Source: an uncultured Gammaproteobacteria bacterium (GTDB lineage Bacteria > Pseudomonadota > Gammaproteobacteria > UBA9214). From it: 64,000 nt of DNA. Position 1 is the first letter of the stretch. The number at the start of each line of letters is the position of its first letter. Below are positions 8,576 through 64,000 of the stretch, one piece after another. The notes under the pieces are model-generated. The model searched no databases. It saw nothing but the letters and a program-made list of their open reading frames with translations, and had not been told where the DNA came from. The stretch lies in contig CAWHCQ010000010.1 of assembly GCA_963827755.1 (NCBI GenBank), forward strand, positions 9,101 to 73,100. Reading direction: 5' to 3'. The translations under genes and the position numbers were made by a program.

Positions 8576-9658
8576 TTATATGGCATCACGCAGCCGGGCA
8601 GCTGCATCTTCCGGACTGATGGTTGTAACAAACAGGCCGGAACCCAGCTCAAACCCGGAAGGAATAGTGGTCCTCGGGCAAATTTCCATGTGCCAGTGAT
8701 AACTCGCATCACAGTCGCTGAATTCGTCGCAACGCGGCACCGTGTGAAAATAATAATTGTATTGTGCACCGCTCAATACCTTGTCGAGACGCTGCATGGT
8801 GCGCTTCAACAGGATTGACAGGTCTGCAAGGTCTTCCGCCGTTGCCTTCATGAAACTGCTCTGGTGCTGAACGGGCAGGATATGCACTTCCCATTCATAA
8901 CGACTCGCAAACGGCTTGATGGCGATAAACCGTTCGCTGCGCTCGATCACGTACTGGCCGACATCCACCTTGCGCCTTATCTCGCCGGACTCGCGATTGT
9001 AGATGGTCGCCTCGAAAGTCAATGCCTCGTCAATCAGGCTGCAGAAAATACACTGGTGGTATTTACGGTAATACCTGCGGCTGCTCTCGACTTCATTGTA
9101 AACATTTTCGGGAATGATCGGCATGGCGATCAGCTGGCTGTGGGTATGCTTGATGCTGGCACCGGCTGCCGGGCCGAAATTCTTGAACACCAGCACGTAC
9201 CTGATGCGTTCATCTGCGGCAAACAATTCTTCCATGCGCTGCCTGTACAGCCCGAGCAGCATGCCGATATGCTGCTGCGACATTTCGTGCACCTCGATGC
9301 CGTGCCGGTGATGGTCAATAATCACCTCGTGGTGACCATAGCCGTCCATGACCTGCTGCAGGCCGATACTGATATTGCCCTGGTCGCTCTCGGTACCCAG
9401 CACCGGGAACAGGTTCTGCACGACGCGGATGCTCCAGTCGTCCGCGTCCGGCAGGGCCATGATCGTCGGCGGGGTCTTGTCCTCGTTGCCCTTGCAGAAA
9501 GGGCAGCTGTCCACATGCTCGCGGGAATCATGCGCAACACGCGCCTCTTCCTTTTGCGGGCGCAGGCTCCGCTCTGATGCAACCAGCACAGACTCGGAAG
9601 GAATGATCGGATTGATGCGGATTTCCCGCACCACTTTTTCAGTCGTCACTTTATTCAT
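8576..9658 (-). CDS. Galactose-1-phosphate uridylyltransferase-like (GalT/HIT superfamily)
   Basis: CPFCxGNE zinc motif, FKNFG..AGASIKHTHSQ catalytic HxHxQ, HWHMEI. The ORF is open back to 9739; ATG 9658 preferred. Confidence 0.85.
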   Translation of the reverse strand: MNKVTTEKVVREIRINPIIPSESVLVASERSLRPQKEEARVAHDSREHVDSCPFCKGNEDKTPPTIMALPDADDWSIRVVQNLFPVLGTESDQGNISIGLQQVMDGYGHHEVIIDHHRHGIEVHEMSQQHIGMLLGLYRQRMEELFAADERIRYVLVFKNFGPAAGASIKHTHSQLIAMPIIPENVYNEVESSRRYYRKYHQCIFCSLIDEALTFEATIYNRESGEIRRKVDVGQYVIERSERFIAIKPFASRYEWEVHILPVQHQSSFMKATAEDLADLSILLKRTMQRLDKVLSGAQYNYYFHTVPRCDEFSDCDASYHWHMEICPRTTIPSGFELGSGLFVTTISPEDAAARLRDAI

Positions 9659-42573: not shown

Positions 42574-42724
42574 TCAGAAGTCCTGAGAAGTGAGAAGTAA
42601 GCAAGTACACAGCCAGGTGACTGTTTCTGAATGTAATGGCCACGGAATCCACGGATGCACACTTAAAACTAAAGTCATTAACTGACTTTTCACTTCTCAC
42701 TTCTTCACTTCTGACTTCCGTGGC
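42574..42724. repeat. Short inverted heptamer element H5 with nested CACG-triplet fragments
   Basis: TGAGAAGTGAGAAGTAA arm, ATGGCCACGGAATCCACGG (42636-), TTCACTTCTCACTTC arm, TTCCGTGGC (42716-42724). Confidence 0.8.
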
Positions 42725-52102: not shown

Positions 52103-52360
52103 GAGCGGTGAAGTAGCGTGAGAGTGAAGTGAGAAGTGAGAAGTGAAAAGTGAAGAGTGAAGAGTGAGAAGTTAAGAGTAATGAGCGACGGTCCAGTAAT
52201 AATCAGGCTCCCTAATGCCCGGTTTAATTTTTCGTGTTCTTCCGTGGATTCCGTGGCCATTAAGGTTTTATCTCTCCCTACTCGTACTTCTCAGCTTATT
52301 CACTCTTCACCCTTATCACTTCACCTTTCACTCTCACTCCTACTTCTCACTTCTCACTTC
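52099..52360. repeat. Inverted heptamer element H6 with nested CACG-triplet repeat (52228-52261)
   Basis: Purine arm starts at the rho stop; central TTTTTCGTGTTCTTCCGTGGATTCCGTGGCCATT; pyrimidine arm contains the htpX stop. Confidence 0.9.
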
Positions 52361-54095: not shown

Positions 54096-54116
54096 TTTAA
54101 ACACCTCTGGTAAACA

Positions 54117-54328
54117 GGTGAAAAGTTAGAAGTGAAGAGTGAAAGTGCAAGACCATGATAGCCACGGAATCCACGAAAGAACACGGAAAAACTATTCTTA
54201 AGGTATTTATCTTTTCGTGTTCTTTCGTGGATTCCGTGGCCATTACACTTCACTTCTCACTTCTCACCTCTCACTTCTCACTTCTCACTTCTCACTTCTC
54301 ACTTCTCACTTCTCACTTTTCACTTCTC
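54117..54328. repeat. Inverted heptamer element H7 with a complete nested CACG-triplet inverted pair
   Basis: GCCACGGAATCCACGAAAGAACACGGAAAA (54161-54190) / TTTTCGTGTTCTTTCGTGGATTCCGTGGC (54212-54240), then TCACTTC array to the purD stop. Confidence 0.93.
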
Positions 54329-55603
54329 CCGGTCCAGGGCACGATAGCCGATATCCGTCCGATAAAAGGCATCAGGCCAGTGAATCCGCTCGACACAGGC
54401 ATAGGCCCTGTCCCTTGCCTCGCGAATAGTAGCACCCAGGGCACAGACACACAGCACACGCCCGCCGCTGGTCACGATGGCGCCGTTTTGCTCCTGCGTA
54501 CCGGCATGGAATACCTTGCAGTCGTCATCATCGACTGGCGGCAAACCCTCGATGACATCGCCCTTGCGGTACTGTTCCGGATAGCCGCCGGCGGCCATGA
54601 CCACGCCCAGCGCGGTACGCTCATCCCATTGCACATCGACATCGTCGAGCTCGCCGTCAACCGTGGCCAGGCAGAGTTCGACCAGGTCGGACTGCAGGCG
54701 CAGCATCACCGGCTGGGTTTCCGGGTCGCCGAAGCGGACGTTGAACTCGAGCACCTTCGGCGTGCCATCGGCCGCAATCATCAGGCCGGCATAGAGAAAA
54801 CCGGTAAACTCATTGCCCTCTTCCGCCATTCCGCGGATCGTCGGCCGCATGACCTCCCGCATGACCCGGCGATGAATGTCCGCTGTTATGACCGGGGCCG
54901 GTGAGTAGGCGCCCATACCCCCGGTATTCGGACCTGCATCACCGTCATCACGCGCCTTGTGGTCCTGCGAGGTCGCCAGGGGCAGGCAGTGGGTGCCATC
55001 CACCATCGCGATAAAGCTGGCTTCCTCGCCTTGCAGGAATTCCTCAATCACGACGCGGTGCCCGGCCTCGCCGAACACGTTCCCGCCAAGCATGTCGCTG
55101 ACGGCCGCGATCGCTTCATCCACGGACTGCGCCAGGATAACGCCCTTGCCCGCGGCCAGCCCGTCGGCCTTCACCACGATCGGGGCGCCCTGCTCGCGGA
55201 TATAGGCAGCGGCCTTGTCGATATCGGAAAAACTGGCGTACGCGGCCGTGGGAATCCCGTGGCGGGCGAGAAAGTCCTTGCTGAAGGACTTGGAACCTTC
55301 CAGCTGCGCGGCCGCGCGGGTGGGGCCGAAGCAGCGCAGGTCGGCGGCCCTGAAGCGGTCGACGATACCGGCGACCAGCGGAACCTCGGGGCCGACAATG
55401 GTCAGCCCGACTTCATTGTCCGTGGCGAAGGCAAGCAGGGCATCGATGTCGGTGGCCTCGATCGCGACGTTCTCCACGCGCGGCTCCCGTGCAGTCCCGG
55501 CGTTGCCCGGCGCCACGAACACCGTATCCGCCCGCGAGGATTGCGCCGCCTTCCATGCCAGGGCGTGTTCGCGCCCGCCACTGCCGATGATAAGAATATT
55601 CAT
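54320..55603 (-). CDS. purD: Phosphoribosylamine-glycine ligase
   Basis: GSGGREHAL, VGPE.PL, KADGLAAGKGV, QDHK, NTGGMGAY, RFGDPETQ. Confidence 0.97.
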   Translation of the reverse strand: MNILIIGSGGREHALAWKAAQSSRADTVFVAPGNAGTAREPRVENVAIEATDIDALLAFATDNEVGLTIVGPEVPLVAGIVDRFRAADLRCFGPTRAAAQLEGSKSFSKDFLARHGIPTAAYASFSDIDKAAAYIREQGAPIVVKADGLAAGKGVILAQSVDEAIAAVSDMLGGNVFGEAGHRVVIEEFLQGEEASFIAMVDGTHCLPLATSQDHKARDDGDAGPNTGGMGAYSPAPVITADIHRRVMREVMRPTIRGMAEEGNEFTGFLYAGLMIAADGTPKVLEFNVRFGDPETQPVMLRLQSDLVELCLATVDGELDDVDVQWDERTALGVVMAAGGYPEQYRKGDVIEGLPPVDDDDCKVFHAGTQEQNGAIVTSGGRVLCVCALGATIREARDRAYACVERIHWPDAFYRTDIGYRALDREK

Positions 55604-60811: not shown

Positions 60812-60851
60812 AAATGCAATAATTTCTCACGCAAGGGTGCAAAAAATATTT

Positions 60852-60885
60852 AATGGCCACGGAATCCACGAAAGAACACGGAAAA
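60852..60885 (+). repeat. Solo CACG-triplet repeat at the islet border
   Basis: AATGGCCACGGAATCCACGAAAGAACACGGAAAA; core identical to 54161-54190. Confidence 0.85.
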
Positions 60886-60940
60886 ATAAAAACTCATCGT
60901 AAAAGCTACAACCCCTGCTCACACCCATCGTCTGTATCCC

Positions 60941-60966
60941 TGTAGGAGCCAGCGCCAGCTGGCGAA
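60941..60966 (+). repeat. Single REP, GTAG family 4
   Basis: TGTAGGAGCCAGCGCCAGCTGGCGAA identical to 37876-37901. Confidence 0.8.
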
Positions 60967-60975
60967 TGTTTCACC

Positions 60976-61281
60976 TCAACCAGCCCCTTCATACAACTCA
61001 ACCTCCACATCAAGCCTGGAACCCAGCCGGTCTTTCTCCAGCTCAAGATCATATCGTGTCTGCAGATTCATCCAGAAACGATCTGACATGCCAAAAAACT
61101 TTGAAAGACGCAGGGCTGTATCAGCAGTAATTGAACGCTTGCCATGAACGATTTCATTAATACGGCGTGCAGGCACACTCGTTGCCTTGGCAATGCGGTA
61201 CTGGCTTATACCCATAGGCTTGAGAAACTCTTCCAGCAGTATTTCTCCGGGATGAATTGGGGGTAATCTTTTACCGCTCAT
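60976..61281 (-). CDS. higA: HigA/VapI family antitoxin (copy 1)
   Basis: [20 protein letters not shown].......[24 protein letters not shown]....FWMNLQ..YDL. Confidence 0.93.
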
Positions 61282-61290
61282 ATTAATCAC

Positions 61291-61374
61291 CTAATGGTAG
61301 TCAACTATCTCTACATCAGTCGCCTGGCCTGATTTCCATTGAAAACATATTCGCCACTGGTTATTTACTCGAAC
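61291..61374 (-). pseudogene. higB: C-terminal remnant of a HigB (RelE-family) toxin
   Basis: Manual translation VRVNNQWRICFQWKSGQATDVEIVDYH*; no start codon in frame before an upstream stop. Confidence 0.8.
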
Positions 61375-61396
61375 CAGCGATGGCTTGTGTGACTGT

Positions 61397-61687
61397 TTAT
61401 GCTGCGGACAGCTTCTTCACATTTAACTGCTTACGCTTCTTTTCTGCTTCCCACAAGTCATACTGAGACTGCTGATTCAACCAACTTTCAGAAGACGTAT
61501 CAAAAGCCAGAGAAAGCCGTACCGCCATTTCAGGACTAATGCCGGATCGACCATTAAGAATTGCCGATAACGTTTTACGACTGATGCCAAGCCCTTCTGC
61601 AACCTCGGTAATACTAAGCCCCAGGGGCTCTATACAGAGTTCCCGCAGAATTTCACCTGGATGGGGAGGATTGTGCATCTTCATCAT
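61397..61687 (-). CDS. higA: HigA family antitoxin (copy 2)
   Basis: [44 protein letters not shown]. Confidence 0.93.
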
Positions 61688-61693
61688 GACACC

Positions 61694-61972
61694 TCAATGA
61701 TAGTCTTCATAATCAACAACGTCTGCATCCTTGTCTTTAAAGCAGAAAGTCACACGCCAGTTACCACTCACCCAAACCGACCAGATTCCTTTCCGTTTAC
61801 CTCCGAGCTCATGTAATTTGAGGCCCGGCAGATTCATGTCCTTTGGATTTGTTGAAGCATCCAGACGACTCAATATCAGCTTTAGCCGGTTAGCATGTTT
61901 GGCCTGAATCCCTGACCTGATTCCTTTCAGGAAGAATTTTTCAAGGCCCTTATGCCTGAAACTCCTTATCAT
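61694..61972 (-). CDS. higB: HigB/RelE family toxin
   Basis: MIRSFRHKGL..FF, PG..LH.L.G, WSV.VSGNWRVTF.F, VDYEDYH. Confidence 0.93.
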   Translation of the reverse strand: MIRSFRHKGLEKFFLKGIRSGIQAKHANRLKLILSRLDASTNPKDMNLPGLKLHELGGKRKGIWSVWVSGNWRVTFCFKDKDADVVDYEDYH

Positions 61973-61981
61973 GGGATACAT

Positions 61982-62000
61982 CGTAACGTATAACGTTACG
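61982..62000. promoter_or_regulatory. Palindromic operator upstream of higBA (putative HigA autorepression site)
   Basis: CGTAACGT-ATA-ACGTTACG perfect 8-bp inverted repeat 10 bp upstream of the higB start. Confidence 0.65.
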
Positions 62001-62126
62001 GGTTACAAATAGGCGGAATAAGCATATTACTTGTCAAGTTTTGCGGATATAGGGGGTATTTCCCCCTGTAACCTGCATATTGGCAAGTAGCATATTAGAG
62101 TTCTTTATAACTGTAATAACTATGAC

Positions 62127-62264
62127 TCTCGCCAAGGCGCCAAGCACGCCAAGAAATCATTGATAGTCTCCCCCTCTACGTCTTTATGAGTTTTCTATCT
62201 TTGCGAGCTTTGCGTCTTTACGAGAATATTTTTTGGTATCGCCAAGCCGCTAAGCCCGCCAAGA
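62127..62264. repeat. Degenerate B-A-B copies of the GxxExxY-associated repeat, downstream of the gene
   Basis: B 62127-62154 TCTCGCCAAGGCGCCAAGCACGCCAAGA; A 62198-62225 TCTTTGCGAGCTTTGCGTCTTTACGAGA; B 62237-62264. Confidence 0.9.
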
Positions 62265-62266
62265 AA

Positions 62267-62659
62267 TCACTGATCTTCCTCAATGAGTCGATTGACAGTA
62301 CGGGTGATACCATCCTTCATCATGGACTCAGCAAAATTCAGCAGATAGCCCAGTCTCATCCCGGTAAATCGAAGGTAGGTAAGGAGTTGCTTCTTGTGAG
62401 CGTTATTGAGCTTTTCAACACACTTAAGCTCAAGAATGACCTTGTTCTCAACGATGAGATCGGCCCGGAAGCCCTCATCGAACTTAAGCCCCTGATACTC
62501 GATATCGACAGGAACCTGCCGCTCCACTTGCAAACCACGCTGCCGCAACTCATGCGACAGGACAACCTCATAGACTGTTTCCAGCAACCCTGGACCTAGT
62601 TCACGGTGAACCCGAATGGCAACATCAACTACCTGCTTCCCTATCTCATTTTCCGTCAT
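62267..62659 (-). CDS. GxxExxY protein (PD-(D/E)XK nuclease superfamily)
   Basis: HRELGPGLLETVYE (GxxExxY), RADLIVENKVILELK (D..ExK catalytic core), QLLTYL, GYLLNF; 130 aa, intact. Confidence 0.92.
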   Translation of the reverse strand: MTENEIGKQVVDVAIRVHRELGPGLLETVYEVVLSHELRQRGLQVERQVPVDIEYQGLKFDEGFRADLIVENKVILELKCVEKLNNAHKKQLLTYLRFTGMRLGYLLNFAESMMKDGITRTVNRLIEEDQ

Positions 62660-62704
62660 TAGCCGCCTATTCCTTTGCGAGCCTTACATCTTTATGAGTT
62701 CTCT

Positions 62705-63654
62705 ATCTTTGCGAGCTTGGCGTCTTTGCGAGAGTATAATTTTTGATCTCGCCAAGCCGCAAAGAACGCCAAGAAACCATTAATATTCCTATTTCTTTAC
62801 ATGCACTTCATCTTTGCGAGCTTGGCGTCTTTGCGAGAGTATAATTTTTGATCTCGCCAAGCCGCAAAGCACGCCAAGAAACCATTAATATTCCTATTTC
62901 TTTACATGCACTTCTATCTTTGCGAGCTTGGCGTCTTTGCGAGAGTATAATTTTTGATCTCGCCAAGCCGCAAAGCACGCCAAGAAACCATTAATATTCC
63001 TATTTCTTTACATGCACTTCATCTTTGCGAGCTTGGCGTCTTTGCGAGAGTATAATTTTTGATCTCGCCAAGCCGCAAAGAACGCCAAGAAACCATTAAT
63101 ACTCCTATTTCTTTACATGCACTTCATCTTTGCGAGCTTGGCGTCTTTGCGAGAGTATAATTTTTGATCTCGCCAAGCCGCAAAGAACGCCAAGAAACCA
63201 TTAATATTCCTATTTCTTTACATGCACTTCATCTTTGCGAGCTTGGCGTCTTTGCGAGAGTATAATTTTTGATCTCGCCAAGCCGCAAAGCACGCCAAGA
63301 AACCATTAATATTCCTATTTCTTTACATGCACTTCATCTTTGCGAGCTTGGCGTCTTTGCGAGAGTATAATTTTTGATCTCGCCAAGCCGCAAAGCACGC
63401 CAAGAAATCACTGATATCTTATCCCTTTAAGTATTTTGCGACTTTGTACTTTTTACAACCTTCACATCTTTATTGTTTTTCTTTGCGAGCTTTGCGTCTT
63501 TGCGAGAGTATAATTTTTGATCTCGCCAAGCCGCAAAGCGCGCCAAGAAATCACTGATATCTTATCCCTTTAAGTATTTTGCGACTTTGTACTTTTTACA
63601 ACCTTCACATCTTTATTGTTTTTCTTTGCGAGCTTTGCGTCTTTGCGAGAGTAT
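62705..63654. repeat. Tandem array of alternating imperfect inverted 28-bp repeats (BIME-like)
   Basis: Units start at 62705, 62810, 62916, 63021, 63126, 63231 (105-106 bp), 63336, 63479 (143 bp), with a final A at 63622. Unit = A(28) + GTATAATTTTTGA(13) + B(28) + linker (36 or 74). Confidence 0.97.
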
Positions 63655-63694
63655 TAAAAAACCCAAATTTACAACAGCCGGCCATCAAGCACCA

Positions 63695-64000
63695 CTACAT
63701 CCCTAACTTCTTCTCCAAATAATGGATATCCGCCCCACCCTTCATAAAAACAGGATCGGTAACAATGTCACGCTGCAGCGTAGCATTGGTCTTGATCCCG
63801 TCGATCACGATCTCATCCAGCGCCACGCGTATGCGCGCCAGCGCAGACTCGCGGGTCTCGCCATAGGCAATCAGCTTGCCGATCATGGAATCATAAAAAG
63901 GTGGAACGGTGTAACCATTGTAAATATGGGAATCGACGCGAATACCCGGCCCGCCGGGTGCATGATACGAGTTGATCGTTCCCGGGGACGGCATGAAGGT
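63695..64000 (-). CDS. accC: Acetyl-CoA carboxylase biotin carboxylase subunit (C-terminal part; 5' end off the window)
   Basis: [51 protein letters not shown]. Confidence 0.95.

Follow-up and report, generated by a model that had tools for sequence, protein, structure and literature searches.

Between prmA and accC, in a 64,000-nt stretch analysed here as a whole and called the window (positions 9,101 to 73,100 of contig CAWHCQ010000010.1, assembly GCA_963827755.1, from an uncultured gammaproteobacterium of the UBA9214 lineage), a small gene of the GxxExxY family is embedded in an array of short inverted repeats, here called arms (Table 1). An earlier note, made from the letters of the window, had described this arrangement and proposed the gene product as an analogue of RAYTs, the tyrosine transposases associated with repetitive extragenic palindromes (REPs). 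Every arm consists of three CGC(A/C)AAG words, and comes in two versions, A and B, each being approximately the reverse complement of the other (mismatched at 5–6 of 28 positions), as had been noted. A regular-expression count gives ten A and ten B arms for the locus (A starting at 62198 and then from 62706 to 63623, B at 62127, 62237 and then from 62747 to 63521), in agreement with the nine A and eight B arms that had been seen to alternate upstream of the gene, and with the B-A-B group downstream of it. Read in gene direction, the region is a series of tandem units, each starting with an outer arm, which is followed by the interior, by an inverted arm and by a linker of 11–13 nt.

Tandem Repeats Finder (TRF) resolves the array into a 105-bp unit present 6.7 times and a 143-bp unit present 2.2 times, both with 98% matches. 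The A-to-B linkers are GTATAATTTTTGA in eight cases and ATATTTTTTGG in one, and the B-to-A interiors measure 36–37 nt (six times), 74 nt (twice), 43 nt (once) and 441 nt for the one that holds the gene. Over 62706–63407, 13-nt and 36-nt linkers alternate, which is the layout of bacterial interspersed mosaic elements (BIMEs), so that the likeness to BIMEs and REPINs (hairpin-forming REP doublets) claimed earlier, alternating inverted arms with fixed short and long linkers, holds for this locus. Given the 98% identity and the identical 13-nt linkers, the 105-bp array most likely grew by tandem duplication. All interiors start like the 3' end of the gene, with AA(T/C)CA(C/T)T(G/A)AT; the right end of the 43-nt interior equals the 5' untranslated region of the gene at 19 of 22 positions, the 74-nt interiors are more loosely alike, and the 36-nt ones more diverged. 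Since the interiors keep gene-end sequences, the gene-less units look like internal-deletion relatives of the gene-bearing unit, and the array reads best as one gene-bearing unit and about ten gene-less units in tandem. In single-stranded DNA folding, A-13-B reaches -17.2 kcal/mol (z -3.9) and B-36-A -18.2 kcal/mol (z -4.5), the arms pairing in both cases in a register slipped by one word.

Metagenome contigs of three studies match pieces of the array exactly: for example, a 135-nt contig (63022–63156) covers more than one unit, and another (63606–63797) links the last arm to accC. No such contig spans the whole array, and the copy numbers given here are those of the assembly; the sequencing runs were compared as contigs, and array parts uncovered in a run carry no meaning. 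In two studies (runs X1 and X2), contigs join a B arm to an A arm through 37 other letters, with joints at window positions 62153 to 63480/63623; judged by their letters, these are a further gene-less unit of the CGCAAAG/CGCCAAG family, with a different interior, from another genome or strain in the samples.

The gene is intact, as the earlier note stated, and GLLETVY, D67...E77-L-K79 and QLLTY are all found in its translation. The protein matches both PF13366 (PDDEXK_3; E 4.5e-43, 146.8 bits, cut-off 22) and TIGR04256 (GxxExxY; E 3.4e-43, 146.7 bits, cut-off 35), a family to which at least 8000 sequence clusters belong at E 1e-5 or better. In the literature passages at hand, the GxxExxY domain is mentioned in passing and the function of PDDEXK_3/PF13366 is listed as unknown. 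Among 93 GxxExxY sequences, G22, G24, L26, E27, Y30, N108 and F109 are invariant, and D67, E77, K79, Q91 and Y95 are conserved at 90% or more; because the D...ExK residues are so conserved, an active minimal PD-(D/E)XK nuclease is predicted. An AlphaFold2 (AF2) model (predicted local distance difference test, pLDDT, 94.8), compared with Foldseek, has a restriction-endonuclease-like alpha/beta fold, the best match being Cas4 SSO0001 (4ic1, E 5.8e-4, TMq 0.52), with others to Archaeoglobus fulgidus Hjc (2wiw, TMq 0.45, TMt 0.48), lambda exonuclease, a tRNA-splicing endonuclease and a restriction-endonuclease-like protein. The family profile finds no match among the sequences of solved structures. 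These structural matches are weak, yet they are consistent with a minimal PD-(D/E)XK nuclease.

To what extent do arms accompany the gene in other bacteria? PF13366 occurs in 13 of 41 genomes of the genus and class, and in all 15 genus loci with both flanks readable the gene lies, by eye, between inverted arms, made of CACGGAA/G, CACAGAG, CGCAAAG/CGCCAAG or CGCAGAG words. These genes occupy short spacers between housekeeping genes (prlC-xthA in eight loci, gmd-fcl in four, nuoE-nuoF and ribF-ileS in one each), the prlC-xthA site being occupied in at least ten genus genomes and gmd-fcl in four, with words that differ at one and the same site. A broad sample over many phyla, with one genome per species, was drawn from 578 relatives, the best 80 of which were used; two loci were excluded for internal stop codons, leaving 78 broad and 15 genus loci, 93 in all. 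In 77 of the 93 (64/78 broad, 13/15 genus), a triple word is found no further than 300 nt from the gene, compared with 3 of 59 control loci (about 3.2 kb searched in each), none of which has a purine-rich word. Homologues are thus flanked far more often than the control genes are, the point on which the earlier note had let its proposal hang. A score for flanking inverted repeats (local alignment of the upstream flank with the reverse complement of the downstream flank) reaches at least 16 in 44/78 broad and 12/15 genus loci (56/93 in total), and in 0/28 HigB and 0/30 rpsT loci, which replaced a mismatched-pair control contaminated by the many loci that share CGCAAAG. More divergent paralogs and relatives, from Nostoc linckia, Flavobacterium rivuli, a metagenome-assembled genome (MAG) labelled Verrucomicrobiota, a Geobacter, a Sphingomonas and one viral contig, score at least 19.5 in 11 of 14 loci, with yet other words, and paralogs within the first three of these genomes have different words. 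A scan of viral contigs gave a single relative, with word arms, so by that scan this is not a phage family.

The association between GxxExxY genes and tandem-word inverted arms is therefore firmly established, and the pairing of repeat and PD-(D/E)XK protein is real and apparently undescribed: a full-text literature search returned no paper on the association, on any of five arm sequences, or on TIGR04256/IPR026350. Many close homologues are known only from contigs of about 0.5–3 kb, and so many lie on contigs of about 1 kb probably because the flanking arms break assemblies; gene absence in fragmented MAGs is to be read with such breaks in mind. Broken copies, with internal stops or split frames, occur beside intact ones (L027–L030 in G008:C14 and G017:C2, L062, L109; L numbers denote extracted loci, G000 the 2.85-Mb assembly that holds the window, and other G numbers the compared genomes).

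The words also follow the protein tree, where the earlier note had suggested looking for co-phylogeny: 31 word changes are needed on the tree of 93 proteins, compared with 42.4 on average, and never fewer than 38, in 200 shuffles of the labels. Well-supported clades share words across phyla, one CGCAGAG clade for example joining Binatia, Desulfobacteraceae, Terriglobia and Phycisphaerales, so that gene and arms are transferred together. At the level of whole genomes, in one draw of 121 genomes from the phylum, nine or more generic arms are present in 13 of 18 PF13366-positive and 5 of 103 negative genomes (12/18 and 3/103 when more than twice the reversed-pattern control is also required), and in one well-sampled family in 11/15 and 2/13, respectively, relatives not being independent samples in these counts. 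Five gene-bearing genomes of other phyla contain 27–120 arms, compared with 0–7 matches of the control pattern. A genome of the same class that has no PF13366 gene (G093) gives 39 generic triple-word matches, mostly CACAGAG/CACGGAG at an 8-nt period, and 26 matches of the reversed control too; these may be a microsatellite-like family rather than arms.

In the window's own assembly, a profile search finds exactly two PF13366 genes. The second, on contig C18, has a GDP-mannose dehydratase-like gene on one side and a GDP-fucose synthase-like gene on the other, and is bracketed by inverted arms of three tandem CACGGAA words. With up to six mismatches, the CACGGAA arm has 30 copies on seven contigs, five of them in the window, and many form plus/minus hairpin pairs 50–130 nt apart. 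A de novo census of three tandem 7-mers starting with C[AG]C, spaced 8–10 nt and with at most one mismatch, returns 99 sites in the genome and 11 in a block-shuffled one; 42 are CACGGAA sites (on 11 contigs) and 23 CGCAAAG/CGCCAAG sites, 20 of these in the window locus. Two genes and two word families thus amount to one gene per word family in this genome. Eight Y1_Tnp (RAYT-type) genes of G000, G023, G166 and G168 are accompanied by other REPs (7/8 score at least 18), with CACGGAA arms at 0/8 loci, so that the word arms are a separate class, and the method recovers true REP-RAYT pairs. The RAYT-type genes of G000 at C3:16187 (L202), C13:5879 (L210) and C17:34362 (L206) are each flanked by their own REP.

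Arms can also be followed at orthologous sites. At 54100–54330, five genomes differ: next to nothing stands there in G003, a heptad-repeat hairpin in G012, and in G000 a hairpin of the G012 type whose loop encloses a CACGGAA hairpin; the outer hairpin recurs in G166, where it encloses another REP, and G023 has a CGCAAAG/CGCCAAG hairpin. Such sites are polymorphic for the presence or absence of hairpins, and hairpins nest in the loops of others. In G000, other REPs fill the prlC-xthA spacer, which is too diverged for an empty-site comparison. The heptad-repeat hairpins, at this site and at about 42580–42720, are a third repeat class, made of runs of 7 nt (GTGAGAA / TTCTCAC, up to about 12 copies); G012 and G166 have them at the corresponding site, and in the window they are the landing place of a CACGGAA hairpin. 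No gene was found to go with them; PF05635 (a four-helix 23S intervening-sequence protein family of similar contexts) was considered as their partner and dropped, as the genome has no member.

We give about an even chance to the explanation that inverted-repeat elements of an undescribed class, clustered in tandem, make up the locus, and that their protein recognises and cuts its cognate arms and thereby drives copying. Every arm of these elements has three tandem 7-nt words (C(A/G)C with a mostly purine-rich tail, spaced 8–10 nt); one unit carries the GxxExxY gene and about ten are gene-less, several with its subterminal sequences, in the manner of miniature inverted-repeat transposable elements (MITEs). 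The protein would bind the tandem words of its arms and cut at or near them; its substrate may be paired arms extruded into a hairpin or cruciform, much as Hjc-type resolvases act on junctions. The cut would drive the copying of units, in a RAYT-like way if it is the arms that are copied, or in a homing-like way if it is the gene, into arm hairpins. The protein probably recognises its cognate arms, and word-specific recognition and cutting of the arms would be the most likely mechanism. More tentatively, and with some doubt on our side, GxxExxY might be the enzyme of a second, non-HUH symbiosis of repeat and nuclease, spread over at least eight phyla, in which a 125-aa PD-(D/E)XK protein would read three tandem 7-nt words, with variable positions that co-evolve with the protein, and would multiply gene-less hairpins, MITE-like units and arrays by cutting paired arms. 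If true, a very large orphan family would gain a function, a compact, naturally re-targetable DNA-recognition module would come to light, and a second class of enzyme would join the HUH transposases, the only ones connected with the REP/REPIN phenomenon so far. PF13366/TIGR04256 is in any case tied to inverted repeats of a distinct kind that is easy to recognise, which gives a testable hypothesis of word-specific binding and cleavage.

Several observations weigh against this explanation, among them arms that do without the gene. CACGGAA arms are present in 32 of 37 same-genus genomes (control pattern: 0 everywhere), and a CACGGAA-type gene was seen only in G000, G003, G006 and G008. Seven genomes (G013, G015, G023, G159, G163, G166, G167) contain 54–91 arms and no PF13366 match (searched at E up to 1 in four of them and up to 0.001 in three), G023 (20 contigs) and G166 (10 contigs) both being 95% complete; two others (G162, G168) have 118–119 arms and only a CGCAGAG-type gene. 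No decay of arms is visible in gene-less G023 and G166, though their prmA DNA is only about 70% identical to that of G000: 16/63 and 20/72 of their arms are identical to the commonest sequence, and 10/30, 12/42, 10/35 and 13/37 where the cognate gene is present, in a comparison of two gene-less with four gene-bearing genomes that are all kin. G166 has 15 arm pairs without gene remnant, whose interiors nevertheless form repeat families (97% identity over 276 nt, 89% over 454 nt). The CGCAAAG/CGCCAAG family, in turn, is not dispersed in G000: motif A, at up to three mismatches, has 10 forward and 0 reverse matches in the whole assembly, all at window positions 62198–63650 (reversed-pattern control: 0), and in a search for solo copies elsewhere in the genome, as the earlier note had suggested, 20 sites at up to six mismatches fall in the locus and only marginal matches outside it. 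No target-site duplication is definable, since flanks AT...AT also extend the palindrome and the 54160 site gives an ambiguous AT. The arms that flank the gene stand in either relative orientation, 49 loci out of 60 having one and 11 the other. Finally, the clustering of words by protein clade is expected from physical linkage alone and is not proof of recognition, and related genomes are not independent samples.

For REPINs and RAYTs, decay after RAYT loss is described as slow, a strain with recent RAYT loss being able to keep a large population (bioRxiv 10.1101/2021.07.10.451892), so that gene-less arm populations weaken the RAYT-like idea rather than overturn it. Taken together, the analogy with RAYTs put forward earlier is supported in part, by the array layout, the match of word and clade, the single gene per word and the enrichment across genomes; its prediction about spreading fails in at least seven gene-less genomes of the same genus.

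The observations on gene-less genomes are what a different relation between gene and arms would lead one to expect, namely that the arms are an independent REP-like family, with a host function or another enzyme, and GxxExxY a selfish open reading frame (ORF) in the hairpin loop that may home there, through its cutting of empty hairpins, but does not propagate the arms. We take this to be possible, if on the doubtful side. It agrees with arms that are abundant and well conserved in genomes without GxxExxY, with 27-nt arms that do not differ between species even where prmA DNA has only about 70% identity, with the hairpin-loop position of the gene (the commonest layout, in 49/60 loci), with hairpins nested in the loops of other hairpins, and with a 101-nt mosaic array of G162 (L200, C3:17480-18030), where the CACGGAA arm, always in one orientation, alternates with another REP hairpin (GTAGGGTGCA...). 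It fits poorly with a gene that stays single-copy per word family in G000 despite dozens of candidate hairpins, with the rarity of arms where the gene is absent (5/103 in the phylum sample), and with the lack of any other cargo gene between inverted arms in G000 or in the 15 pairs of G166; nor was another candidate enzyme found, the RAYT genes having REPs of their own. Another idea is that GxxExxY is a defence- or toxin-like nuclease carried as unrelated cargo on a MITE-like element, moved by an unknown transposase, protein and arms not interacting. Toxin-antitoxin genes beside both G000 copies and arms that exist without the gene speak for it. Against it are the arms around 77/93 members of the family, with no cargo of another kind observed, the agreement of word and protein clade from phylum to phylum, and the lack of a transposase nearby; we hold it to be improbable.

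It seems similarly unlikely that the arms are cis elements, i.e., operators or an RNA processing stem (comparable to rRNA or 23S intervening-sequence stems) that lets the ORF sit in host operons. The genes are indeed often found between co-directional housekeeping genes such as those named above, and both neighbours are co-oriented in 37/58 loci, a crude count with a moderate bias and little weight; no sigma-70-like promoter was found in 61900–63750, and an RNA-library contig covers 62287–62682, where DNA carry-over is possible and contigs break at repeats. However, most arms are far from any GxxExxY gene, and arm mismatches, read on the sense strand, do not favour wobble pairs (67 are of G.U type, 78 of A.C type and 175 of other types, in 2233 arm positions of 60 loci that are 86% Watson-Crick). 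Rfam 15 gives no family at threshold, only sub-threshold matches to microRNA precursor families, and the structured-RNA alternative raised in the earlier note finds no support in these results. As to an assembly artefact or a chance repeat, no single contig of another run spans the array, but the exact contigs of three studies cover its pieces and junctions, the same architecture is found in isolate genomes, and shuffle and reversed-pattern controls are near zero, which leaves this origin very improbable.

As regards the surroundings of the gene, the sole family-matched ORFs that share the prmA-accC islet with it are one HigB and two HigA genes, and no transposase or integrase is present, as had been stated; the islet has no integrase-like ORF that would indicate an integron cassette, attC core sites not having been formally searched. 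In the comparison of this interval that the earlier note proposed, it is only 75–313 nt long in nine and 636–759 nt in three of the 12 relatives that have both genes, and no arms were seen in the ten relatives' intervals inspected. The nearest relative has different toxin-antitoxin genes at this site, and the spacers here and on C18 act as hot spots for small mobile genes. At that relative's site (L174 577–1079), a Phd/YoeB-like pair was recognised by eye from the ORFs, and HigA-like remnants by their similarity to the window HigA, neither from a family scan. Toxin-antitoxin genes adjoin GxxExxY at both G000 loci; on C18 (L002 2100–2700), a VapBC-like small pair lies between the arms, identified by eye and not by a family-library scan. 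A classic REP of the form GCGGATC...GCTCCTACAG, one of those that flank the RAYT-type genes of G000, also litters the accC-prmA spacers of relatives.

Table 1. Positions of the gene, arms, array units and neighbouring features in the window
Feature	Position	Strand	Remarks
GxxExxY / PDDEXK_3 gene	62267–62659	minus	intact ORF, 130 aa; G22-G24-E27-Y30, D67, E77-x-K79
B arm, degenerate	62237–62264	+	directly past the stop codon of the gene; one end of the gene-bearing unit
A arm	62706–62733	+	upstream, 46 nt from the start codon; closes the gene-bearing unit on that side
Extra degenerate A-like copy	~62670–62697
Gene-less unit downstream of the gene	62127–62225	+	B 62127–62154, 43-nt interior, A 62198–62225
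Tandem 105-bp units, 6.7 copies	62705–63407	+	A, 13-nt linker, B, 36-nt interior; 98% matches
Two 143-bp units and terminal A arm by the accC stop	63337–63654	+	A, 13 nt, B, 74-nt interior
Islet from prmA to accC	60812–63694		2883 nt; HigA-like, HigA, HigB, GxxExxY gene, arms
HigA-like	60976–61290
HigA	61397–61687
HigB	61694–61981
Solo CACGGAA x3 arm	60855–60885	+	prmA edge of the islet
CACGGAA-type hairpin with a 20-nt loop between two inverted arms	54160–54241	+	nested in the loop of a heptad-repeat hairpin
Degenerate CACGGAA-type arm	42638–42668	+	inside another heptad-repeat hairpin
Solo CACGGAA-type arm	52228–52258	-

Several known systems share part of these features. MITEs and the transposons with terminal inverted repeats resemble the GxxExxY units in the inverted repeats around a gene or short interior, in gene-less units, several of which keep subterminal sequence of the gene unit, in copies at different loci that share interiors, and in presence/absence polymorphism at orthologous sites; they differ in that no recognised transposase family is involved here, that no target-site duplication could be defined, and that the gene unit exists in one copy and keeps its position within the genus. 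Homing endonuclease genes of the free-standing sort, among them those of PD-(D/E)XK type, are small nuclease genes that sit between conserved genes or in a sequence that they may recognise, and have a patchy distribution among relatives. The likeness lies in insertion and patchiness, whereas homing genes are not known to have bracketing tandem-word repeats or dispersed gene-less copies. With Hjc and Cas4, GxxExxY has the PD-(D/E)XK fold in common and, with Hjc, the size (about 120–130 aa); in contrast, it has no match at sequence level to solved structures, and neither Fe-S cluster cysteines nor a context of clustered regularly interspaced short palindromic repeats (CRISPR) is seen.

The closest resemblance is to the REP/REPIN-RAYT systems and BIMEs, which, as described in the literature passages at hand, have hairpin doublets, alternating arrays and tens to about 100 dispersed copies per genome, a small gene, as a rule present once, that lies between its cognate repeats at a chromosomal site conserved within a genus, a repeat type particular to each gene type, and repeat populations able to outlive the gene. 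Paired and dispersed inverted repeats are found in the CACGGAA family, and the CGCAAAG family of the window is confined to its locus in G000. Differences are equally clear: a REP is a single palindrome, whereas each arm here is made of three tandem 7-nt words; RAYTs are, in the same passages, mostly inherited vertically, whereas gene and arms are shared here across phyla; and, unlike in REPIN-RAYT systems, no decay of the arms was visible where the gene is absent (G023, G166). The GxxExxY gene and its arms thus work like a REP/REPIN-RAYT system but are not a member of that class, which is defined by its HUH Y1 transposase (PF01797), the place of which is taken here by a PF13366 PD-(D/E)XK protein.

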